A stretch of DNA of 32,000 nt from Candidatus Hadarchaeota archaeon (GTDB lineage: Archaea > Hadarchaeota > Hadarchaeia > Hadarchaeales > Hadarchaeaceae): NCBI GenBank assembly GCA_964514965.1, contig CAZETV010000002.1, positions 188,545 through 220,544 on the forward strand, given 5' to 3'. The notes below the pieces were generated by a model. That model was not told the origin of the DNA and made no database searches. It saw only the letters and a list, made by a program, of their open reading frames with translations. Made by a program: the position numbers and the translations under genes. Position 1 is the stretch's first letter, and every line of letters begins with the position of its first letter. Positions 5,621 through 15,352 of this stretch are shown here, piece after piece.

Positions 5621-6970
5621 ATGGGTTGTATGTTTTCGAAGCTCGACACAAAACGTTTAAATCCCGCATATATCGAAATTCGATACGAGATTAGATACAA
5701 GGTGAAGTGTGTGGAGGTAAAACCACTTAGTAATATCATAGCTATCGGAAAGACGACGCGGGGGGGCAGACCATTCCCTGTCAGAAGGCATCGGGGCCTG
5801 TACTTTTTCATCCCGGTTGAGCAGTTCGACTGGTTAAGGGAAGTAAATGATGCTTACAAGACCCTCTACCGAATGGAGGGGGGGGTAGAGCCGCTTCAGA
5901 AGATAAAGATAGTTGGGAGAGGAGGCGTTGAGGGATACAAGCCATTCTTGCTCAGGGGGCACTACGGACGGTATTTGTGCATCCTCGCCGAGCATCTTAG
6001 ACAGCTCAAGCAGATCAACCGCGCGTATGCGGAACTACTTGAAGCTAAAGGGCTGGAGAAAGAGCGCAAGAGGAGGTTAGAAGAGAAGGAACGAGCGAGC
6101 AAAATTGTAGAAAGCGTGAAAGCGGCGGTAGAGGACGCCCGAAAGATAGGAGCACCCGAACATGGGGCCGAACTCATGCGGCCCGTCGACGAATCCCTTG
6201 CCGAAATCGAGGCTGCGTTCATCGCCGAGGAATACAACAAGACCATTGAGCTGGCATCAAAAGTGGATGAACTGGTCCGAGAAGCTAGGGCAAAAGCGCT
6301 CAAGAAAATCGAGGAAACGAAAAAGATCGAAGCGGTGAAAAGACCTCCAGAAGAGGGGAGGTACGTTTACTGCATCATCCCTTGGGAGGGGAGCCACAGC
6401 AGGCTTAGCTTTGGAGACTTGGGTGTAGAGGGCAACGGCGAGGTGTACGCCATACCCTTTGGAGACATCGCAGCGGTCGTGAGCAACGCCCCCTTCAAGG
6501 AATACGTGCTCACCGAGGACAACATACGCACCCATAACCAAGTCATAACGCGCGTGATGCAGGAGTACCCTGTCGTGCCAATGGCTTTCGGCATGGCGTT
6601 CAAAAATGAGGGGGTGCTCAAAGGGTTGCTCGGGAGGATGCGCGATGATTTGAAAAATGCCCTAAATGAAGTCAAGAGCAAGGTCGAACTCGGCGTCAAG
6701 GTGATCTTGCCGGAGGGGACCGAGTTCGACGAGAACGCATTTGCATCTGAGATCAAGGCGCTTCACGAGCTGGCGACCCAATGCAAGCTCGGCAAGCGGT
6801 TCAGCAAGCGTTTGATCTTGAACGCGTTTTATCTAGTAGCGAAAGAAAAAGTGGAAGATTTCCTAGGCGCGGCTAAAGCGCTGGAGGAGAAGTTCAAACA
6901 GCTGAGTATACAGTGCACTGGTCCATGGCCCCCGTTCAACTTCGCAACAATAAAAGTTGGAGGTAGGTGA
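5621..6970 (+). CDS. gvpF: GvpF/GvpL-family gas vesicle protein with a novel N-terminal duplicated ~45-aa module and a coiled-coil linker
   Basis: The C-terminal ~200 aa (GRYVYCIIP...FGDIAAVVS...PVVPMAFG...CTGPWPPFNFA) is classic GvpF/L. The N-terminal ~130 aa holds two repeats homologous to the 101-aa ORF at 9969..10274. The true start may be GVG-type: GTG 5702 or 5711 (see findings). Confidence 0.9.
   Translation: MGCMFSKLDTKRLNPAYIEIRYEIRYKVKCVEVKPLSNIIAIGKTTRGGRPFPVRRHRGLYFFIPVEQFDWLREVNDAYKTLYRMEGGVEPLQKIKIVGRGGVEGYKPFLLRGHYGRYLCILAEHLRQLKQINRAYAELLEAKGLEKERKRRLEEKERASKIVESVKAAVEDARKIGAPEHGAELMRPVDESLAEIEAAFIAEEYNKTIELASKVDELVREARAKALKKIEETKKIEAVKRPPEEGRYVYCIIPWEGSHSRLSFGDLGVEGNGEVYAIPFGDIAAVVSNAPFKEYVLTEDNIRTHNQVITRVMQEYPVVPMAFGMAFKNEGVLKGLLGRMRDDLKNALNEVKSKVELGVKVILPEGTEFDENAFASEIKALHELATQCKLGKRFSKRLILNAFYLVAKEKVEDFLGAAKALEEKFKQLSIQCTGPWPPFNFATIKVGGR
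5673..5683. promoter_or_regulatory. Perfect copy of the TCGAAWTTCGA palindrome preceded by ATATA (atatatcgaaattcga), inside the nominal 5' end of the gvpF ORF
   Basis: Read directly. The same 16-nt arrangement ATATATCGAAWTTCGA occurs upstream of gvpN (14339-14354, opposite strand). Confidence 0.55.
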
Positions 6971-6971
6971 G

Positions 6972-7265
6972 GTGCCCTTCCTAGTCGATGACATAGTTCT
7001 CCGAATGCTCGGGATTTCGATCCCGCCCTTCGACATGATCTGGTTGCTGGAGACCATACGGGACTTCGCCGTTCGGGAAGTCTATGATCCTGAAAAGATA
7101 AGCGACTCGATAAAGGAAAACCGGATGCTCTACGAACTCGGGGAGATCACGAAGGAGGAGTATGAGCGGGTCAATACAGAGCTCCTCGAGGCGCTCGAGA
7201 TAGCAAAGCGTGCTAGGGAGACGAAGATCGAGCACCGCATCGATATTTTGGGAATTGGTGGGTAG
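6972..7265 (+). CDS. gvpG: Gas vesicle protein GvpG
   Basis: PFLVDDIVLRMLG...REVYDPEKISDSIKENRMLYELGEITKEEYERVNTELLEALE matches the GvpG pattern. A GTG at 6972 sits right after the gvpF stop, with GGAGGT at 6959-6964. The ORF track starts at TTG 6957. Confidence 0.85.
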   Translation: MPFLVDDIVLRMLGISIPPFDMIWLLETIRDFAVREVYDPEKISDSIKENRMLYELGEITKEEYERVNTELLEALEIAKRARETKIEHRIDILGIGG

Positions 7266-7266
7266 G

Positions 7267-7791
7267 ATGAAAAGGCACCCTATGCAACTATGCAGGCTCC
7301 TCTTTGGCAACATATTTCACGACCTAGAAAAGCTGGCGAGGACAGTAGATGCGCTCGCCAAAGAGGGAGAGGTCCGGAAGGGGTACAAAGAGGGCCCCTT
7401 CATCGTCGAGTACCGGCGGACCGTTCGCTACATCCGCCCTGAGTCCACCGCTCCAGCCCCCGAAGCACCGCGAATCGAAATCAAGCCGAAACCAATCGAG
7501 GCCGAGGCCAAGCCTAGGGAATCGCTAGTGGACGTTTTCGACATGGGAGATCATATCTTGGTCATGGTCGGGCTCCCCGGTGTGAAGGAGGAAGATATCG
7601 AGTTCGAGACCGTGGGCAGCGCGCTCAAGATCAAGATTCACACACCCGGTGGCGATGTCGAGGGCGATATCTCGATTGCGGGAGTTGAACAGGTTAAAGA
7701 AATCATGGGTGCCTCTTTCAAGAACGGCACCCTCGAAATCAAACTGAAAAAAATAAGGGAGGTGAAGAGATGGGAACCAGCACAGCGATAG
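7267..7791 (+). CDS. gvpH: Hsp20/alpha-crystallin domain protein in the GvpH slot
   Basis: The ATG at 7267 comes 1 nt after the gvpG stop. Alpha-crystallin domain: LVDVFDMGDHILVMVGLPGVKEEDIEFE...FKNGTLEIKLKK. The position between G and the basic I-slot gene matches halobacterial gvpH. Confidence 0.8.
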   Translation: MKRHPMQLCRLLFGNIFHDLEKLARTVDALAKEGEVRKGYKEGPFIVEYRRTVRYIRPESTAPAPEAPRIEIKPKPIEAEAKPRESLVDVFDMGDHILVMVGLPGVKEEDIEFETVGSALKIKIHTPGGDVEGDISIAGVEQVKEIMGASFKNGTLEIKLKKIREVKRWEPAQR

Positions 7792-8174
7792 GGGTCGGGG
7801 GGCTGAGGAGGCGCAGGCGAAAGGCCATGATATCTAAAACAGTTGCGCGGAGCAAGCTGAGCAGGGACAGATCGAGAGTCAAGCTGCTGCACGCGAGGGA
7901 GCGGTACAAGATGAAGGTGTGGAAGCACGAGCGCGGGATGGCAGCCAGAAAGGCGGAGCAACCAAGCAAGCTTGGTCCGCTTGCGGTATCGTTCATGCCT
8001 TCGAAAGAGTCCGCCAAGCGATCCAGGCTGGTGCAGCCCCGCTGGTCGGCCGTGCCCAGCAAGCCCAAGTATTCCGATGTGAAGCCGAAGGAGAGGCTCT
8101 ACGGGCTGAGGTTCGAGGCGCGCGAGAAGCGACTCGCAAAGCAGGAGTCCGAGGAGAAAAAGCCCAAGGAATAG
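7770..8174 (+). CDS. Very basic Arg/Lys-rich protein in the GvpI slot (possible GvpI analog)
   Basis: 134-aa ORF (an alternative ATG at 7827 would give 115 aa). Third-position codon usage is like its neighbours (aag/gag/ctg). It fills the H-J gap exactly. No motif beyond its basicity. The start is uncertain. Confidence 0.5.
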   Translation: MGTSTAIGVGGLRRRRRKAMISKTVARSKLSRDRSRVKLLHARERYKMKVWKHERGMAARKAEQPSKLGPLAVSFMPSKESAKRSRLVQPRWSAVPSKPKYSDVKPKERLYGLRFEAREKRLAKQESEEKKPKE

Positions 8175-8184
8175 GTAGGTGTGG

Positions 8185-8544
8185 ATGATGGTAGCTATCG
8201 CCCCGACAAGGGAGGGCCCGAGCGACTTAGCTCAAACAATCGAGAAGATTCTCGACAAGGGACTCGTGCTAGACGCCGACATCGCGGTTTCGGTCGCCGG
8301 TACCGAGTTGCTGGGCATAAAGATTCGCGCCGCACTCGCCTCTTTCGAAACCGCCGCGAAATATGGTCTCGAGTTTCCGAGCGGCGTCAACCTCAATGCC
8401 CCTGCATGGAAAGAGATAAACGTGAAAAAGGCGAAGTGCCCGGGCTGTGGAAACGAGTGTCCGGAGGAGGAGCTGCTCAAGCGGGGTTGTCCAATCTGTG
8501 GCTGGATGAGCCCGCTGAAGCCAAGACAGGCCCCGATCCCCTAG
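8185..8544 (+). CDS. gvpJ: GvpA/J/M-family protein (GvpJ slot) with a C-terminal CxxC...CxxC zinc-ribbon extension
   Basis: The core LAQTIEKILDKGLVLDADIAVSVAGTELLGIKIRAALASFETAAKYGL is the GvpA-family fold. The tail is KCPGCGNECPEEELLKRGCPICGW. AGGTAGGTG lies upstream of ATG 8185/8188. Confidence 0.85.
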   Translation: MMVAIAPTREGPSDLAQTIEKILDKGLVLDADIAVSVAGTELLGIKIRAALASFETAAKYGLEFPSGVNLNAPAWKEINVKKAKCPGCGNECPEEELLKRGCPICGWMSPLKPRQAPIP

Positions 8545-8553
8545 GTGGTAAAC

Positions 8554-8868
8554 ATGGCAATCGAGATCGATGAGTACAACCTCAAACAAGGGTTGCTGGG
8601 GCTGGTAGTCGCTCTCGCCGAAGTCATCCAAGAGGTGCTCGAGCACCAAGCGCTGCGGAGGATGGAGTCGGGTGGGCTGACCGATGCTGAGGTGGAGCGG
8701 CTCGGCAACGCTCTCATCGAGCTCGACGAGGCACTTGAACGCATCAAGCGGGAGAACGGAATCGAGGAGTGCGTGAGGTCCGTGCGAGATGGGCTCGACC
8801 AAGTAGCGGACGAGGCCATCCGTAAGCTAGCCGACCCGCAGGAGTGGGCAAGGGAGGCCACATCGTGA
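8554..8868 (+). CDS. gvpK: Gas vesicle protein GvpK
   Basis: LLGLVVALAEVIQEVLEHQALRRMESGGLTDAEVERLGNALIELDEAL matches the GvpK signature. AGGTGGT lies 4 nt upstream of ATG 8554. The ORF track starts at GTG 8545. Confidence 0.9.
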   Translation: MAIEIDEYNLKQGLLGLVVALAEVIQEVLEHQALRRMESGGLTDAEVERLGNALIELDEALERIKRENGIEECVRSVRDGLDQVADEAIRKLADPQEWAREATS

Positions 8869-9653
8869 ACGGAACCCAAAAAGCGACCGAGGGGAGGTAC
8901 CTATACTGTATAGCCAGCTGCGGCGATGGGTTGTCACTGGGAGAGATAGGGATAGACAAGGGCCAAGTTTACACGATTACGCATAACGACATCGCTGCAG
9001 TAGTACACGTTTGCCCGCCCAAGCCCTATGAGTCCAAGGACGAGGAGCGCGTGAAGCGCTGGGTCTTCACCCACAACTACATCATCGACCAAGCCACCAA
9101 GCGATTCGGCACGGTGCTGCCTTTCTCTTTCGATTCTATCGTCAAGGGGGACGACGACGCGGTGGAGGGATGGCTGAGCGAGAATTACTCCCGATTTAAA
9201 GGTGAGCTCGAGAGGCTCAGAGGGAAGTCGGAACACACGGTACAGATCTTCTGTGACGCCTCCTTGTTAGCGCGGAGGATTGAAAAAGACAACCAGGAGA
9301 TTGGGTGGCTCGCGGAAGAGATCAAAGTAGCTCCCAAGGGAAAAGCCCACCTACTCGAACGGAAGCTCCAAAAGATGATTAGGGAGGCCGTGGCAGCTCA
9401 GGTTCGCGATTGGTCCAAAAAGTTCCATGTGCAGATAGAAGAACATGTCGAGGAGGCGAGGGAGGAGCGAAGCAGGTTCGTGCCCGAGCGGTTCAAGGAT
9501 AAGAAACTCGTGCTAGGCCTATCGTGCTTGGTCAGCGAGGGGAAAGTCGAAAAACTCGGAGAGGTGCTCCGCCAAATAAACGAGCAAGAAGGGTTCTCGG
9601 TGCGGTTCACGGGGCCTTGGGCGCCATTCAGCTTTGTGAGGTTGACCAAATGA
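8865..9653 (+). CDS. gvpL: GvpF/GvpL-family gas vesicle protein (GvpL slot)
   Basis: GRYLYCIAS...HNDIAAVVH...TVLPFSF...FTGPWAPFSF. The GTG at 8865 overlaps the gvpK TGA (GTGA). The ORF track starts at 8844. Confidence 0.9.
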   Translation: MNGTQKATEGRYLYCIASCGDGLSLGEIGIDKGQVYTITHNDIAAVVHVCPPKPYESKDEERVKRWVFTHNYIIDQATKRFGTVLPFSFDSIVKGDDDAVEGWLSENYSRFKGELERLRGKSEHTVQIFCDASLLARRIEKDNQEIGWLAEEIKVAPKGKAHLLERKLQKMIREAVAAQVRDWSKKFHVQIEEHVEEAREERSRFVPERFKDKKLVLGLSCLVSEGKVEKLGEVLRQINEQEGFSVRFTGPWAPFSFVRLTK

Positions 9654-9883
9654 GGCCGACGCGGGAGTGCGGGCTCGTCGAGTTGCTCGATAAGATTTTG
9701 GACAAGGGCGTGGTGCTCAACGCAGATGTTATCATCTCGGTCGCTGGGGTTCCACTGGTGGGGGTGAGCCTCCGCGCTGCGCTTGCCGGAATCGAAACGA
9801 TGTTGGACTACGGCATAATGGAGGCTTGGGACCAGAGCATTAGGGAGCATTACTCAGAGGAGCTGGCGAAGAGAAAAGCGTAG
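9650..9883 (+). CDS. gvpM: Small GvpA/J/M-family protein (GvpM slot)
   Basis: 77 aa from the ATG at 9650, which overlaps the gvpL stop (ATGA). Core: LVELLDKILDKGVVLNADVIISVAGVPLVGVSLRAALAGIETMLDYG. Confidence 0.85.
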   Translation: MRPTRECGLVELLDKILDKGVVLNADVIISVAGVPLVGVSLRAALAGIETMLDYGIMEAWDQSIREHYSEELAKRKA

Positions 9884-10385: not shown

Positions 10386-12551
10386 CTACCTTACCATCTC
10401 CGGAGTCATCGTCGGTCGAACCTTCTTTATCGCCCCATCGAAGTGCTTGCACTCGATCCGCTTGTCCTTGAGCGCCTTCCGCATCGCTTCCTTAGTCATC
10501 CCGGGCTTAATCGCCTCCCGGAGCGAGAGCATCACTGCCTCCCTGCATATCGCCGCTATGTCCGCGCCCACGTAGCCTTCGGTCCCCTTGGCGAGCGCGC
10601 TCAAGGAAACGTCCTTTGCAAGAGGTTTCTCCTTGAGGTGGACCTTGAAGATTTCCTCGCGCTCCTTCGGGTCGGGAGGTAGAACGTAAATCAGCCTGTC
10701 GATTCGGCCCGGCCTCAGCAGCGCCCGGTCGATCATGTCGGGCCGGTTGCTAGCGCACAGCACGAGCACATCCTTCAGCTCCTCCAACCCATCGAGTTCG
10801 GTCAACATCTGACTAACGACGCGCTCGGAGACATGCGAGTCGAAACTCACCGCGCGCGTCGGGCACATCGCATCGATTTCATCGAAAAAGACGATGCAGG
10901 GGCTTGCTTGCCTCGCCTTCCTGAACATCTCCCTCACGCCCCGCTCGCTCTCGCCAACCCACTTCGACAGCAGCTCTGGGCCTTTAATCGAGATGAAGTT
11001 CGCCTCGCTCTCGGTCGCGACGGCCTTCGCCAGCATTGTCTTGCCAGTGCCGGGGGGTCCGAACAATAAAATCCCCTTGGGGGGCTTGGTCTTGAAGCGC
11101 TCGAAAGCTTCGGGGTACTTGAGTGGCCACTCCACCGCCTCGATCAGCTCCTGTTTTGCCTGCTCCAAGCCGCCTATGTCATCCCAGTGCACGTTGGGGG
11201 CTTCGATGAACACCTCCCGCATCGCGCTGGGAGTCACAGTCTTGAACGCATTTGAAAAATCATTCATCGTGACTTCAAGTGCCTCAATGATCTCAGCTGG
11301 AATCTCCTTCTCGATCTCGATTTTCGGCAGGATCTTGCGCAGGGCGCTCATCGCCGCCTCCTTGCATAGCCCAGCGAGGTCAGCGCCTACAAAGCCGTGA
11401 GTTATGTCGGCGAGGTAGTTGAGGTTGACATCTTCTGTGAGTGGCATCCCGCGCGTGTGGATCTGCAGGATCTCGTAGCGCCCGTTTCGGTCTGGGATGC
11501 CTATCTCGATTTCGCGGTCGAATCTTCCTCCTCGGCGCAACGCCTCATCGAGAAGGTTGGGTTGGTTAGTTGCACCAATTACAACAACTTTTCCGCGCGT
11601 CTTAAGACCATCCATCAGCGAGAGAAGTTGCGCCACCACCCGCCGCTCAACCATCCGCTCCCCAGTCATCTCCGAGCGTTTTGGGGCAATCGCGTCTATC
11701 TCATCGATTAGGACGATCGCTGGAGGGTTCGCCTCCGCCTGCTCGAATATCTCCCTGAGGCGGGCCTCTGACTCCCCATAGTACTTACCGATCACTTCTG
11801 GACCCGAGACGAAAACGAAGTTCGCATCGGTCTCGTTTGCTACCGCCTTCGCTATTAGCGTTTTGCCTGTGCCTGGGGGGCCATGGAGCAGTACCCCTTT
11901 AGGGGGCTCAATCCCCAGCCTCTGAAAGAGTTCGGGATGCTTTAGCGGTAGCTCGATCATCTCACGGATGAGTCCTACCTCGCGCTTCAGCCCGCCGATG
12001 TCCTCGTAGGTGACGTAGGTCCGCATAGCCTCGATTGGCTTCTCTGCGAGCGTGACCTCGGTCTCCGGGACAACGATAACAACGCCCGTGGGCTGGGTGG
12101 AGGTGACGATGAAAGTAAGTGGTCTACCTAGAATATCGACTCGAATTTGCTGGTCCTTGATGATCGGCTGCCCCTCGAGCACCTTGCGGATGTACTCGTC
12201 GCCCTCCACTATCCTTATCGGCTCCGTGGGGGCAACACTTATTCTCCTCGCCTTCTCGGCGGCGGCCTTCCTGATCTCAACCCGCTCACCGATTCCAATG
12301 CTTGCGTTGCTCCGAATGTTACCATCGATCCGAATTATCCCACTGCCCGAATCCTCGGGATAGCACGGCCAAACAATCGCGTAAGCAGACCCCTTCCCCT
12401 TAATCTCGACGATGTCCCCGCTGACCATACCTAACTTTTTCATCACCTCTGAGTCTACCCGCGCTATCCCCCGACCTGCGTCGCGGTGCTTCGCCTCAGC
12501 AACTAGCAGGATTTGGGGCACGTTACCACGATTTTGTTCTCGCTTCCTCAA
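10386..12551 (-). CDS. cdc48: Cdc48/VCP-type double AAA+ ATPase
   Basis: 721 aa. N-domain: [27 protein letters not shown]. Two Walker A sites ([18 protein letters not shown]) with matching Walker B/SRH regions. The start is uncertain (TTG 12551 or GTG 12521). Confidence 0.95.
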
Positions 12552-12883: not shown

Positions 12884-13249
12884 CTACGGCACGTAGATGT
12901 AGCCACCGCGCTTGTAGGGTACCACCTTGACGCTTTTGCCCTTCCAGTTCGCAACCCCCTCACGGACGTTATAGCGCTCCACATCTTTGGCCAGCTTGTA
13001 GTATTTGAGGAACTTCGCAAATCGCTGCTGCTTGGCCCTGCCGCCCGCGCGGAGCGCCGATGTGCTGAAAGTGCCGTCCGATTTTAGTCGTAAGTAAAAC
13101 GTCGTGCTCACGGTTCGCCCGTCTGGAGTTTTAGCCGCCACTATTACAGCATCGGTGTCTGCGATTGTCAGCCCTGGTGGCTTCTTCCGCCATAGCTTGC
13201 TTATCTTGCAGACCCTTACATCCTCTATCGTCGCACTCAACCTTTCCAT
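12884..13249 (-). CDS. Hypothetical protein inserted between gvpN and gvpO
   Basis: 121 aa. The ATG at 13249 is preceded by GGTGAGGT, 10 nt after the gvpN stop, and the gene's stop lies 10 nt before the gvpO ATG. Codon usage is like its neighbours. No family recognised. Confidence 0.7.
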   Translation of the reverse strand: MERLSATIEDVRVCKISKLWRKKPPGLTIADTDAVIVAAKTPDGRTVSTTFYLRLKSDGTFSTSALRAGGRAKQQRFAKFLKYYKLAKDVERYNVREGVANWKGKSVKVVPYKRGGYIYVP

Positions 13250-13259
13250 AACCTCACCC

Positions 13260-14288
13260 CTAACTTGGTATCACCTCTTTCACGAGGCGTTGCTTATTGA
13301 CAAGATCGACGGGCCCCTTAACCTTCGTCGCTAAGATATCGAGAACCAGTTCTTCGAGCCGCTTCTCGCCGTCGCCTAGCACCATGAGTCCTTGAGCGAC
13401 CATTATACAGGCCCGCGTCCCAGGCTTCTCGGCATCGGGCAGTTTTTCCCTTATCTTTCTGATAATCTCCACTATCCTCCGCGCATCTGCGTCGGATACT
13501 CCCGAATGCGCCGTCGTGATCTCCACCTCGGTCTCTGGGTCGTAGAAGTCCATGTAGATTCCAACGGTGCGATCAAGCAGCGCGTCCTGCGGGCGGTGCA
13601 CCCCGGCGTAGTCGACCGAGTTGCTCGTGAATATCGCCATGAATTCCGGATGGGCCTTGATGTATCGCTCCTCGCCGAATCGCGTGGGGAGTTCCAGCAC
13701 GCCCTCTTGGAACACCGAAAGCAGGACGTTGTTAGCTTCAGGCTTCGCTCGGGAGAAATCGTTATAGACGAAGATGTAACCATTCTTGCACGCGATCGTC
13801 AGCGGGTTGTCCACCCAACCAGCTTTCAGGATATTTTTCGCCTTGAGGACGGTGTGAACGTAACGGTCGCGGATGCTCTCACTCTCCACCTGTGAGTAAC
13901 CACCAACGAGATCAGTCGTAGTCATTGACTCGTCTCCGTTCAGCCAGACCGTCGGCTTTCCCAGCTCTTCGGCCACTTTCATCGCGAGCGTGGTCTTCCC
14001 GCAGCCGGTCGGGCCAATGATGTGAACAGGGTAGCCGGCGTTGAGCCAGAGCTTCACCTTCTCCTTGAGTTTTTTGACTTGCTCGGTCTCGACGAAATGC
14101 TCGACCTTCGGCATCAGGTATCTGGTCTCCACCGTTTCAGCAGCGAGTTCAGGTCTCACAGTAATCGCTCGCTTAACGAATTCCGCGCGCTTCGCACGTT
14201 CCTCGCGCCACCGCTCTTTTGCCTCCTCCAAGGTCTCGGTGATTCGCTCTCCCCTGACTTTCTTAGGATGGGCCCGTCTCCATCTCAC
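13260..14288 (-). CDS. gvpN: Gas vesicle protein GvpN (MoxR-like AAA+ ATPase)
   Basis: FVETEQVKKLKEKVKLWLNAGYPVHIIGPTGCGKTTLAMKVAEELG. The 342-aa length is typical. The GTG at 14288 is preceded by GGAGG. Confidence 0.92.
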   Translation of the reverse strand: MRWRRAHPKKVRGERITETLEEAKERWREERAKRAEFVKRAITVRPELAAETVETRYLMPKVEHFVETEQVKKLKEKVKLWLNAGYPVHIIGPTGCGKTTLAMKVAEELGKPTVWLNGDESMTTTDLVGGYSQVESESIRDRYVHTVLKAKNILKAGWVDNPLTIACKNGYIFVYNDFSRAKPEANNVLLSVFQEGVLELPTRFGEERYIKAHPEFMAIFTSNSVDYAGVHRPQDALLDRTVGIYMDFYDPETEVEITTAHSGVSDADARRIVEIIRKIREKLPDAEKPGTRACIMVAQGLMVLGDGEKRLEELVLDILATKVKGPVDLVNKQRLVKEVIPS

Positions 14289-14338: not shown

Positions 14339-14349
14339 TCGAAATTCGA
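14339..14349. promoter_or_regulatory. Perfect copy of the TCGAAWTTCGA palindrome abutting a TATA-like ATATAT element upstream of gvpN
   Basis: Plus strand tcgaaattcgatatatct. Read on the gvpN strand this is AGATATATCGAATTTCGA, 51-61 nt upstream of GTG 14288. Confidence 0.55.
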
Positions 14350-14397
14350 TATATCTAAGAAGTAAAATTTGAAAAAAGTAAGGGAATCAACCGTTAG

Positions 14398-14577
14398 CTA
14401 CTCGTACCAAAAGTCATTTACGTACTTGCCCACATCTTCTTTGTGGTATCTTTCAATCTCGTTTTGAAATTTTTTGGCTTCTCCGAGTAACTCCTTAGCG
14501 CCCCGTTCGATTTTTTTCACCGCAGCATCAATCGCTGCGCGCTTCGCCATCACGCCAGTCTTTTCCTTTTCAGCCAC
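14398..14577 (-). CDS. Short helical Lys/Glu-rich protein, paralog of 14637..15065 (GvpC slot)
   Basis: GVMAKRAAIDAAVKKIERGAKELL...FQNEIERYHKEDVGKYVNDFWYE aligns with both ends of the 142-aa neighbour. The GTG at 14577 follows a G6 Shine-Dalgarno-like run. The ORF track starts at TTG 14595. Confidence 0.6.
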   Translation of the reverse strand: MAEKEKTGVMAKRAAIDAAVKKIERGAKELLGEAKKFQNEIERYHKEDVGKYVNDFWYE

Positions 14578-14603
14578 CCTGCGCCCCCCTAACAATCATA
14601 ATT

Positions 14604-14630
14604 TGATAATAAATAAAAATAAAAGAAAGG
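14604..14630 (-). terminator. Oligo-T-rich stretch after the 142-aa gene (archaeal terminator-like; may also carry a TATA element)
   Basis: The minus strand reads CCCTTTCTTTTATTTTTATTTATTATC directly after the TAG at 14637-14639. Confidence 0.4.
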
Positions 14631-14636
14631 GGTAAT

Positions 14637-15065
14637 CTAACCGTACCAGAAGTTTTGGATAGCGTTACTGAAGTCTTCTTTCCTGTACCGCTTGAACTCG
14701 TTGCCTAACCGCTTGCATTCGTTGCTTAACTTCTTTGCATTGCTCAGGATTTGTTCGGTCCCCTTGCCGATCTTCGCTACTGCCTCCTCGTTCTCTTTGA
14801 CTTGCGCTTGGATCGCCGACTGAAGTTCACCTGCCCCAGTCTCTATCTTTTTGACAGCTTCCTCCACTTTATTGGTTGTCTCTTTAACTGCTGCTGTCAT
14901 CTGCTTGACTCCCTCGGTCATTCGTCTCTCTCCTTCTTTGTAAATGTCTTTGCCTGCTTTTTGAACATCTCTACTTGTCTTCTCAATCGCGGCACGCTTC
15001 GCTAAAACCCCCTTCTTCCCAATCTTCGGTTTTTCCACCTTAGGTGTATACTCCTCTTCTACCAT
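14637..15065 (-). CDS. Helical Lys/Glu/Ala-rich protein immediately downstream of gvpA (GvpC slot)
   Basis: 142 aa. GGGGGT lies 5 nt upstream of the ATG. The sequence is low in hydrophobic residues and repeat-like (AVKETTNKVEEAVKKIETGAGELQSAIQAQVKENEEAVAKIGKG). The C-terminus is EFKRYRKEDFSNAIQNFWYG. Confidence 0.7.
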   Translation of the reverse strand: MVEEEYTPKVEKPKIGKKGVLAKRAAIEKTSRDVQKAGKDIYKEGERRMTEGVKQMTAAVKETTNKVEEAVKKIETGAGELQSAIQAQVKENEEAVAKIGKGTEQILSNAKKLSNECKRLGNEFKRYRKEDFSNAIQNFWYG

Positions 15066-15088
15066 TTTCTACCCCCTAAATAATTGAA

Positions 15089-15107
15089 CGGGCCCTCGCG
15101 GGGCCCG
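15089..15107 (-). terminator. GC-rich hairpin between gvpA and the next gene (attenuator/terminator-like)
   Basis: cgggccc (15089-15095) pairs with gggcccg (15101-15107): a 7-bp G/C stem with a 5-nt loop, 24 nt after the gvpA stop. Confidence 0.5.
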
Positions 15108-15130
15108 CCACGATCTCAGGCCGAGGCTCT

Positions 15131-15352
15131 CTAAGGCGCAGCTGGTGCACCGATCGCAGCTGCCTCGATTTTCGTCATCTCTTCCGCGTAGTGGACGAAG
15201 GTGTCGACTGACGCCACTACCACACGAGCCTCAACAGTAAGTATCTCAATTCCAACTAGCGAAACTCGTGCCCAGACATCGACGACAATCCCCTTGTCGA
15301 GGATTCGATCGAGAACCTCTGCCAAGTTACTAATTGCTGGTCTAGCTGCCAT
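15131..15352 (-). CDS. gvpA: Major gas vesicle structural protein GvpA
   Basis: 73 aa. [48 protein letters not shown] is near-canonical GvpA. GGGAGGT lies 6 nt upstream of the ATG. Confidence 0.97.

Follow-up and report, generated by a model that had tools for sequence, protein, structure and literature searches.

The engineering of acoustic reporter genes and vesicle nanoparticles works mainly through GvpC, whose binding site in Anabaena is the alpha-2 region of the shell protein GvpA. The cyanobacterial protein (PF01304; Anabaena/Dolichospermum type) is encoded after gvpA, is built from helical tandem repeats with one conserved face, shows length variants within a lineage, and ends in an aromatic residue and glycine ('...FRQDLFVSIFG'). 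Its repeat of 33 residues introduces a phase offset of 60 degrees each time (Huber et al., PMC9994262). The haloarchaeal protein (PF05465, Halo_GVPC), as represented by that of Halobacterium salinarum pNRC100 (WP_010890518.1), occupies the second place in the order gvpA-gvpC-gvpN-gvpO, is likewise an all-helical repeat protein, and continues beyond its repeats into an acidic linker and a C-terminal ROS/MucR zinc finger (ROS_MUCR domain at residues 317-371). The gas-vesicle clusters of methanogenic archaea, by contrast, are said in a review to lack gvpC (PMC9501494).

Here we analysed a gas-vesicle cluster in a 32,000-nucleotide stretch of DNA (the window) from a Candidatus Hadarchaeota archaeon, in which two genes behind gvpA, referred to as X1 and X2, probably encode a long and a short form of a divergent, non-halophilic type of GvpC.

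Two genes follow gvpA

The original prediction was that two genes, encoding 142 and about 59 aa, lie immediately after gvpA, and open reading frames of these sizes are indeed present there on the minus strand. The locus contains the following features:

15131-15352, minus strand: gvpA, 73 aa, major gas-vesicle shell protein, directly upstream of X1
15087-15109, minus strand: GC-rich hairpin with a 9-bp stem, from a terminator-like scan, between gvpA and X1, which lie 65 nt apart
14637-15065, minus strand: X1, 142 aa, ATG start, GvpC-like
14398-14577, minus strand: X2, 59 aa, GTG start, short paralog of X1
13260-14288, minus strand: gvpN (AAA+ protein; NCBIfam TIGR02640, 1.3e-98), after the X genes

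The gvpA product matches Pfam PF00741 (Gas_vesicle, 1.8e-14) and NCBIfam GvpA (4.3e-37), and shares 83.6% identity with Halobacterium GvpA in residues 3-63. The longest open reading frame for X2 spans 14398-14595 (65 aa, TTG start); translation most likely begins at the GTG at 14577, for a protein of 59 aa, because an RBS-like AGGGGG lies 6-7 nt 5' of it, as is also the case for the X1 start, and because the lengths of related proteins agree, the database representative near-identical to X2 (P0055) having 59 aa and the X2 ortholog from a related contig (P0187, contig L023) 58 aa.

The hairpin between gvpA and X1 is weakly supported, since the total returned by the terminator-like scan was not above that of shuffles. 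The haloarchaeal gvpA versus gvpACNO transcripts suggest, by analogy, that it may act as an attenuator and would thereby hold X1 and X2 sub-stoichiometric to GvpA.

In addition to these genes the cluster carries Cdc48 and Hsp20 paralogs and MEDS-PadR regulators, and clusters of its type lack gvpD and gvpE. That absence speaks for a reading in which the X proteins would be regulators of gvp expression standing in for GvpD/GvpE, as does an N-terminal module resembling a helix-extension-helix in the long relatives of X1 and X2 described below. However, X1 and X2 themselves have neither this module nor any DNA-binding domain, the MEDS-PadR proteins are better candidates, and a rod made of tandem repeats is a poor fit for the role, which makes a regulatory function extremely improbable.

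X1 and X2 are paralogs under purifying selection

X1 and X2 are paralogous, as had been proposed: BLASTP aligns them with E=2e-10 and 40% identity across the C-terminal 45 residues. They share an N-terminal motif (GVLAKRAAI in X1, GVMAKRAAI in X2), an internal motif (EAVKKIETGAGEL in X1, AAVKKIERGAKEL in X2) and a C-terminal motif (EFKRYRKEDFSNAIQNFWYG in X1, EIERYHKEDVGKYVNDFWYE in X2). All the motifs originally described are therefore present, the one correction being that the first position of the C-terminal motif, given as 'F(K/Q)', reads F-Q in X2 but L-G in X1. The elements of X1 to which we refer below are:

14985-15023, minus strand: N-cap IGKKGVLAKRAAI, residues 15-27, start of the helix
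14760-14807, minus strand: core repeat signature AQVKENEEAVAKIGKG, residues 87-102, best-conserved stretch of the 58- and 18-residue repeats of the family
14640-14705, minus strand: C-cap GNEFKRYRKEDFSNAIQNFWYG, residues 121-142, aromatic-Gly terminus

Residues Q88, K90, N92, A95 and G102 of the core signature and F139, Y141 and G142 of the C-cap are invariant or nearly so in the wider family. While X1 comprises about 1.5 repeat units, X2 has about 0.5, a single half repeat set between the two caps, in agreement with the view that the short protein is the long one with its middle removed; its terminus is FWYE, compared with FWYG in X1 and a terminal G in the family. Both genes are under purifying selection, because dN/dS is about 0.08-0.15 (0.075-0.15 for X1 and 0.15 for X2, against orthologs from related contigs).

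A family of similar proteins is linked to gvpA

Neither X1 nor X2 matched any Pfam or NCBIfam model above threshold, including the GvpC models PF01304 and PF05465, and no PDB sequence matched the family profile below E=0.03, the hits being designed or coiled-coil proteins only. A profile search, followed by inspection of the related loci, uncovered a large gvpA-linked family of its own (the X family), in line with the initial suggestion to look beside gvpA in other archaea, with about 120 cluster representatives (119 scored) of 59-390 aa. These proteins consist of an N-cap, (G/S/T)V..K.AAI, which is nearly invariant (found in 80 of 119 members, against 17% of shuffles), a variable number of helical repeats, and a C-terminal F(Y/W)(Y)G, this aromatic C-terminus being the most conserved feature of the family. 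Many members have an additional N-terminal module of ~45 residues ('TRRELEEMA..LGI'), absent from X1 and X2.

Members from Methanoperedens, Methanocellales, Methanothrix, Hadarchaeota and metagenomes sit immediately behind gvpA, or behind its last copy, in about 40-41 independent loci (three further loci end at contig edges). The next gene is usually gvpN, as it is after the X genes of the window, and the order is gvpA-X-gvpN-(orf121)-gvpO. Together with the order in the window, these loci confirm that the two genes sit in the GvpC slot, which is also the slot of the haloarchaeal gene. The sole family match without gvp genes nearby (G106/L040, E=2.7e-6) is weak and was treated as spurious, and proteins of 600-2000 aa among the weaker profile matches, which lack the terminal motif, were rejected as coiled-coil false positives.

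Among 401 sampled Halobacteriota genomes, gvpA was present in 49, the X family in 10 (9 of them gvpA-positive) and Halo_GVPC in 8, and none of the 401 carried both the X family and Halo_GVPC. As 32 of the 49 gvpA-positive genomes have neither type, the GvpC slot is dispensable. Genes of the gvpA family were found in 3 of 66 Hadarchaeota genomes, and the hadarchaeote gas-vesicle cluster is a rare, probably horizontally acquired one. In the literature outside subscription journals we found no earlier description of the family, or of a GvpC in Methanothrix, Methanoperedens or Hadarchaeota.

The proteins are predicted to be long helices with one conserved face

AlphaFold2 (51-sequence alignment) predicts for X1 a disordered N-terminus of ~19 residues followed by a continuous helix from residue 20 to 141 (mean pLDDT 92), and for X2 a single helix from residue 3 to 58 (AlphaFold2, pLDDT 86). 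The hydrophobic moment of X1 has its maximum at 100 degrees (z=6.1). In the long members, which are composed of tandem repeats of 58 or 18 aa with the consensus ...QIrENrdAasKM.sGA..., the amphipathic periodicity stays coherent at 3.60-3.64 residues per turn for up to 280 residues (z=5-11). These models, and the coherence of the periodicity, uphold the earlier suggestion of long amphipathic helices.

The conserved repeat positions fall on the hydrophobic face (permutation p<0.0005), as Huber et al. also describe for cyanobacterial GvpC (PMC9994262). The 58- and 18-residue units correspond to 16 and 5 whole helical turns, so that each unit shows the same face, whereas the 33-aa cyanobacterial repeat runs out of phase; neither haloarchaeal GvpC (z=2.3) nor Anabaena GvpC (z=1.0) shows such coherence over the long range. 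A further difference is that the body of X1 has almost no aromatic residues, whereas these predominate at the conserved positions of the haloarchaeal and cyanobacterial repeats. The 18-residue unit measures 27 A and is not commensurate with the ~12.1-12.7 A spacing of GvpA. Conserved positions in the 58-mer form seven clusters; reading these as one contact per GvpA was rejected, because their spacing is simply the two-turn periodicity of the helix.

The architecture of the family bears on an alternative in which the X proteins would be scaffolds or chaperones of the assembly phase, absent or rare on finished vesicles, the helix binding monomeric GvpA or the edge of a growing rib, or bridging accessory Gvps during biogenesis. 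Split-GFP assays show haloarchaeal GvpC to interact with GvpF, H, I, K, L, N and O, and it has been proposed to join the nucleation complex (PMC9501494), the cluster in the window is unusually rich in chaperone-like genes (the Cdc48 and Hsp20 paralogs), and the 'TRRELEEMA..LGI' module of many members could recruit partners. A variable count of face-preserving repeats, however, fits a binder of the lattice and not a chaperone of monomers. The position of the X gene, co-directional and right behind gvpA with only the weakly supported hairpin between them, suits a sub-stoichiometric structural protein, and the mutual exclusion with Halo_GVPC also argues against a scaffold, which we consider unlikely.

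Profile comparison connects the family to haloarchaeal GvpC

When the family was compared with 12 haloarchaeal GvpC sequences using hhalign, the two profiles aligned with 91% probability and E=1.1e-6, at an identity of 6-9% within the alignment. The alignment ends exactly at the invariant F-Y-G with which the haloarchaeal repeat domain finishes, pairing the X1 C-cap with the haloarchaeal segment 'TEDAFVAFARDFYG', and the family's terminal F(Y/W)(Y)G corresponds to this F-Y-G. Reversed and column-shuffled controls gave E~0.8. Removal of the terminal motif left the register unchanged (E=2.5e-4 to 2e-3), while a shallower alignment of 15 sequences reached a probability of only 34.7%. At the other end of the protein, the N-cap region aligns with residues 2-34 of haloarchaeal GvpC ('SVRDK...', E=2.5e-4), so that the family motif (G/S/T)V..K.AAI corresponds to the haloarchaeal N-terminus 'MSVRDK..'. 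An HMM built from haloarchaeal GvpC alone placed 54 of the 119 family proteins above the top-scoring of 1309 decoys; X1 obtained 14.6 bits, compared with 13.6 for the best decoy, and X2 alone 8.2. The PF05465 model itself gave no match at E<=0.01-0.1 to X1, X2 or six other members, its positive control, Halobacterium GvpC, scoring 3.4e-74.

By these profile comparisons, the X family is a remote homolog of haloarchaeal GvpC. The proposal of a distinct family consequently holds in that the X proteins form a family of their own with no match to the GvpC models, but not in the sense that they are unrelated to GvpC; nor are they ordinary GvpC homologs, as the relationship found is a remote one and to the haloarchaeal type. 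The differences are considerable: haloarchaeal GvpC is strongly acidic and has repeats of 32-40 aa with paired Phe, whereas the X family is basic or neutral, has repeats of 58 or 18 aa without paired Phe, and stops at F(Y/W)(Y)G where the haloarchaeal protein goes on to its linker and zinc finger.

Could this likeness reflect a similar helix rather than common ancestry? The X family would then be unrelated to GvpC, a convergent amphipathic helix of the apolipoprotein/phasin/LEA type that is surface-active and would coat vesicles or membranes against aggregation or space the vesicles, in a manner comparable to the clustering role reported for GvpU. Like the X family, exchangeable apolipoproteins, phasins and LEA proteins form long, straight amphipathic helices that complete a turn about every 3.6-3.67 residues and have a narrow apolar face, and a strict 3.6-residue periodicity is typical of helices at flat interfaces, not of coiled coils. 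The best sub-threshold Pfam/NCBIfam matches of X1 (WXG100-like, ApoLp-III, apolipoprotein and phasin, all of coiled-coil type) point the same way, as does the absence of such long-range coherence from haloarchaeal and Anabaena GvpC. However, sub-threshold matches were all that Pfam and NCBIfam returned, with no significant homology between the X family and these proteins, whose 11/22-mer repeats differ in length from those of the X family with its conserved end motifs. Moreover, the reversed controls preserve composition and periodicity and yet the signal was gone, both end motifs are colinear with haloarchaeal GvpC, the family is seen only beside gvpA (the one weak match excepted), and cyanobacterial GvpC, which is also a helical repeat protein, gave no signal with either family. 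Convergence is therefore very unlikely.

Cyanobacterial GvpC is not detectably related

The original prediction saw no likeness to the GvpC with 33-aa repeats, and none was detected. PF01304 did not match the family proteins, nor did it match anything above cut-off across the whole genome of the window, and aligning the family by hhalign with 7 database sequences of cyanobacterial GvpC gave E=0.29, a weak test given their low diversity (Neff 1.7). Haloarchaeal and cyanobacterial GvpC were equally undetectable to each other (hhalign E=0.68). By eye only, the cyanobacterial N-terminus 'SLMAKIRQ' resembles 'GVMAKRAAI', and the aromatic-Gly C-terminus is common to both.

These similarities leave room for a broader and, in our view, doubtful reading, in which the cyanobacterial, haloarchaeal and methanogen/Hadarchaeota proteins would form one ancient superfamily. 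An N-cap [G/S]-[V/L]-x-x-K and an aromatic-Gly C-cap, rather than the repeats, would define it, each cap docking one end of the helix on the GvpA lattice. Its 'ideal' form would be the methanogen type, a helix that keeps its own phase and is also commensurate with the rib, with a 58-residue unit of 16 turns (~87 A) coming near the length of seven GvpA subunits; X1 and X2, being of different lengths, would jointly tune vesicle width and strength.

A probable divergent GvpC of non-halophilic archaea

Returning to the reading that we favour, in which X1 and X2 are length variants of a divergent GvpC, each protein would be a rod-like amphipathic alpha-helix, ~18 nm long in X1 and ~8 nm in X2, lying along the ribs outside the GvpA shell. 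The conserved face, made of small or hydrophobic residues (Gly, Ala, Ser, Ile, Met, Phe), would point toward GvpA, with the N-cap ((G/S/T)V..K.AAI) and the aromatic C-cap (F-W/Y-Y-G) docking the two ends of the helix. Such binding would stiffen the vesicle and probably help to set its width, and the family varies the length of its helix through additional units of 58 or 18 residues. Charge speaks for this reading as well, X1 being basic (net charge +7) and the alpha-2 region of the GvpA in the window acidic. Points that speak against it are the remoteness of the homology signal, repeat lengths unlike those of either known GvpC type, the scarcity of aromatic residues in X1, the mismatch between the 18-residue unit and the GvpA spacing, the final E of X2, the dispensability of the slot and the many accessory Gvps with which haloarchaeal GvpC interacts. 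We infer from these sequences and models that X1 and X2 are present at the surface of the vesicle, how they bind there, that they strengthen it and that the caps act as anchors.

Our results indicate that many gvp clusters of non-halophilic archaea, among them those of Methanothrix, Methanoperedens, Methanocellales and Hadarchaeota, hold a GvpC-type gene annotated as 'hypothetical', making the X family a candidate outer shell protein for the gas vesicles of methanogens. They also tie haloarchaeal GvpC to a far broader family, in which the conserved end motifs are likely docking elements. For vesicle engineering the family would represent a new parts list, with other repeat lengths, a non-halophilic chemistry and natural variants of 59-390 aa.

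One member is encoded by a cultured, gas-vacuolate organism, Methanothrix thermoacetophila (ABK13861.1, 299 aa; by position Mthe_0059). Expression of Mthe_0059 was 2.18-fold higher during growth on acetate than during DIET growth (P=0.0018), and gvpA, gvpN and gvpO were likewise higher in acetate-grown cells (PMC10470525); this member, the gene being identified by position, is co-regulated with the gvp genes.

Two constrained paralogues between gvpA and gvpN

The genome is that of a Hadarchaeote (1.28 Mb), and the window's ribosomal protein S9 belongs to a 90%-identity cluster named Hadarchaeaceae/Hadesarchaea. The minus-strand genes of the gas-vesicle cluster run in the order gvpA, X1, X2, gvpN, an ORF of 121 aa, gvpO and a Cdc48-type ATPase:

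15131-15352, minus strand, gvpA
14637-15065, minus strand, X1 (142-aa ORF)
14398-14595, minus strand, X2 (short ORF, read from a TTG)
14339-14357, between the X2 stop and the gvpN start, palindrome TCGAAATTCGA, then a TATA-like ATATAT
13260-14288, minus strand, gvpN
12884-13249, minus strand, conserved 121-aa ORF between gvpN and gvpO
10386-12551, minus strand, Cdc48-type double AAA+ ATPase, 3' of gvpO
5621-9883, plus strand, convergent gene set including GvpF/L genes

The most likely start of X2 is the GTG at 14577, which would give a protein of 59 aa, because a ribosome-binding-like AGGGGG lies 6-7 nt 5' of it (as it does of the X1 ATG), a near-identical database representative (P0055) has 59 aa and the orthologue in a relative has 58 aa. 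As proposed in the original prediction, X1 and X2 are paralogues (BLASTP E=2e-10) with all three of the motifs first noticed in common, and the short protein does resemble the long one without its middle: between shared N- and C-caps, X1 carries about 1.5 repeat units and X2 half a unit. Against orthologues, dN/dS was 0.075-0.15 for X1 and 0.15 for X2, and therefore both genes are real and constrained.

Close relatives of the window have the same tandem pair in other lengths (121+96 aa and 122+58 aa). Assembly GCA_053537795.1 holds two related, distinct gvpA-X-X'-gvpN-orf121-gvpO-cdc48 blocks (loci L022 and L023), whose X proteins are 63-70% identical to X1, representing either two clusters per genome or a mixed bin.

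The palindrome and the TATA-like element between X2 and gvpN suggest that gvpN starts a separate transcription unit, with gvpA-X1-X2 forming its own. The 121-aa ORF had no Pfam or NCBIfam match. Many related clusters have it in the same place (tblastn 1e-23 to 1e-73; loci L003, L004, L010, L011, L022, L023, L062 and L068-L072). The Cdc48-type ATPase also lies 3' of gvpO in closely related contigs and a Methanocellales MAG (L011, L022, L023; 70-91% identity), and appears to belong to such clusters as a conserved element, not as a chance neighbour.

A widespread family directly downstream of gvpA

Neither X1 nor X2 gave an above-threshold match to Pfam or NCBIfam models, including PF01304 (cyanobacterial GvpC) and PF05465 (Halo_GVPC), and PF01304 had no match above cut-off across the whole genome. 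A word-indexed search found 13 relatives, and a profile search of 1.84 billion representatives gave 165 matches at E<=1e-3 (43 at E<=1e-10), among which long coiled-coil proteins were set aside as false positives. With these left out, 119 representatives of 59-390 aa have one common architecture, which no family model covers. The N-cap (G/S/T)V..K.AAI is present in 80 of the 119, compared with 17% of shuffled sequences; the body is helical, with tandem repeats of 58 residues (for example in P0014, P0018, P0025 and a Methanothrix protein) or 18 (P0010, P0013). The proteins end in FYYG, FYG, FWG or FYFG (51, 21, 20 and 13, respectively, among 147 representatives new from the profile search), and X1 and its closest relatives in FWYG.

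Frequent in the family and absent from X1 and X2 is an N-terminal module of ~45 residues ('TRRELEEMA..LGI') with a Pro/Lys-rich linker. In P0007-P0043 and others (e.g. L003:8001-8681), where the linker is Pro/Lys/Ala-rich, its consensus is 'T(A/V)EEL..(K/E)HTRRELE.MA..LGI....G.K..LAEAII.A'. The module had no Pfam match and by eye resembles a helix-extension-helix or Rho-N-like fold.

The expected linkage to gvpA in other archaea was found at every locus with enough flank, the X gene lying in the same orientation immediately 3' of gvpA, or of its last copy; the sole match without gvp neighbours was a weak one (E=2.7e-6).

Loci of the X family and their gene order
Methanoperedens, Methanocellales and other MAG or metagenome contigs: 14 loci (13 distinct), gvpA-X-gvpN
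Assembly closely related to the window: 2 loci on its contigs, gvpA upstream in one, the other truncated at X
Second Hadarchaeote (G028): 1 locus, gvpA-X-gvpN
Sampled Halobacteriota genomes: 9 loci (8 with gvpA upstream, 1 cut by the contig end), gvpA-X-gvpN
Metagenome loci, FWG subgroup: 13 loci, gvpA-X, gvpN divergent
Metagenome loci, other: 5 loci, gvpA-X-gvpN

Among 401 sampled genomes of the Halobacteriota, the phylum of the Methanocellales MAG, gvpA-family genes were present in 49, the X family in 10 (9 gvpA-positive) and Halo_GVPC in 8 (all gvpA-positive); none of the 401 had both, and 32 of the 49 gvpA-positive genomes had neither. On plasmids of Natronorubrum bangense (L020) and Halocatena salina (L021), gvpA is directly followed by gvpN or gvpO, with no annotated gvpC.

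Phylum-level searches (G000, G026, G028) found gvpA-family genes in 3 of the 66 Hadarchaeota species genomes and the X family in 2, a sporadic distribution. Methanocellales, Methanoperedens and Methanothrix encode the closest counterparts of the window's GvpA, GvpN and X. On both counts, the cluster as a whole was probably acquired horizontally.

Remote homology to haloarchaeal GvpC

The proteins had been thought to show no likeness to the 33-aa-repeat GvpC. This was borne out for the cyanobacterial form: X1 and X2 had no PF01304 match, and a shallow alignment of real PF01304-positive sequences showed no profile similarity to the X family (E=0.29). Nor did that alignment resemble haloarchaeal GvpC (E=0.68). 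The cyanobacterial C-terminus '...LFVSIFG' is another aromatic-Gly end, like that of the X family.

Haloarchaeal GvpC, however, proved to be remotely homologous. The 12 reference sequences (Halobacterium GvpC from pNRC100 and 11 relatives) have an invariant N-terminus 'MSV..K' and an invariant F-Y-G closing the repeat domain ('TEDAFVAFARDFYG'). Compared by hhalign with these, the 51-member family alignment gave 91% probability (E=1.1e-6, score 52) and the alignment stopped exactly on FY(Y)G, while controls with either alignment reversed or the haloarchaeal columns shuffled scored about 10 (E about 0.8). Removing the last 5-20 family columns left the register unchanged (E=2.5e-4 to 2e-3); a shallower 15-sequence family alignment reached only 34.7% probability. 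The N-cap region alone matched residues 2-34 of the 389-column haloarchaeal profile, with E=2.5e-4 against the first 70 columns and 2.4e-3 against the full profile (reversed controls 0.16-0.19). Independently, an HMM built from the haloarchaeal repeat domain only was run against 119 members and 1309 shuffled or reversed decoys: 54 of the 119 scored above the best decoy (13.6 bits), with a top member at 33.6 bits, X1 at 14.6 and X2 at 8.2.

The evidence fits best if X1 and X2 represent a divergent GvpC of non-halophilic type. Less probable alternatives are a scaffold used during vesicle assembly (the likeliest of the three), a coat of apolipoprotein or phasin type that arose by convergence, and a regulator. 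GvpC as a kind of protein is already known, and the X family is a new, widespread variant with a testable haloarchaeal link.

A predicted straight helix with one conserved face

AlphaFold2 with the family alignment predicted one unbroken helix for X1 (residues 20-141, mean pLDDT 92) and one helix for X2 (residues 3-58, pLDDT 86). For the X1 helix, the hydrophobic-moment spectrum has a sharp maximum at 100 degrees per residue, or 3.60 residues per turn (z=6.1, 1000 shuffles); for long members the maximum lies at 99-99.5 degrees (z=7-11) over up to 280 residues. Such a spectrum corresponds to a straight helix carrying one unbroken apolar stripe rather than to a supercoiled coiled coil, and it fits the repeat lengths, 58 residues making 16 turns and 18 residues 5 turns. 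In an alignment of 23 repeats of 58 residues, conservation was highest at S4, G11, I14, G18, G25, F29, Q36, N40, A43, M47, G50 and L54, and these residues lie on the side towards which the hydrophobic moment points (permutation p<0.0005). With a net charge of +7, X1 is basic, and the corresponding GvpA segment in the window is acidic.

Anabaena GvpC follows the ribs and uses one conserved face to bind helix alpha-2 of GvpA; each repeat of 33 residues (49.5 A) covers four GvpA subunits of 12.1-12.7 A, and perfectly helical repeats would each be turned 60 degrees relative to the one before (Huber et al., PMC9994262). By the same arithmetic, a 58-residue unit (87 A) would cover about seven subunits without phase drift; units of 18 residues do not follow this rule. 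On the GvpC reading, the X proteins would be helices lying on the vesicle surface and bound along the ribs of GvpA. Conserved caps would close both ends, the number of face-preserving units would vary, and the two paralogues would provide rods of about 18 nm and about 8 nm. Length variants of Planktothrix GvpC correlate with vesicle width and strength, a precedent for length tuning.

Co-expression with gvp genes in Methanothrix

Methanogen gvp clusters are said to lack gvpC (PMC9501494). In Methanothrix thermoacetophila PT (G173), a 299-aa family member annotated as hypothetical (ABK13861.1 / WP_011695262.1) is encoded between gvpN and four gvpA copies; our literature search found no mention of this gene, nor of GvpC in Methanothrix, Methanoperedens or Hadarchaeota. 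By position it is Mthe_0059, whose transcript in cells grown on acetate was 2.18 times as abundant as in DIET-grown cells (P=0.0018) and, with magnetite, 1.88 times, tracking gvpA (2.6-2.7), gvpN (2.27) and gvpO (2.19) in the same transcriptome (PMC10470525, supplementary file 5). The counterpart of the 121-aa ORF, by position Mthe_0057, is likewise co-regulated with the gvp genes (PMC10470525).
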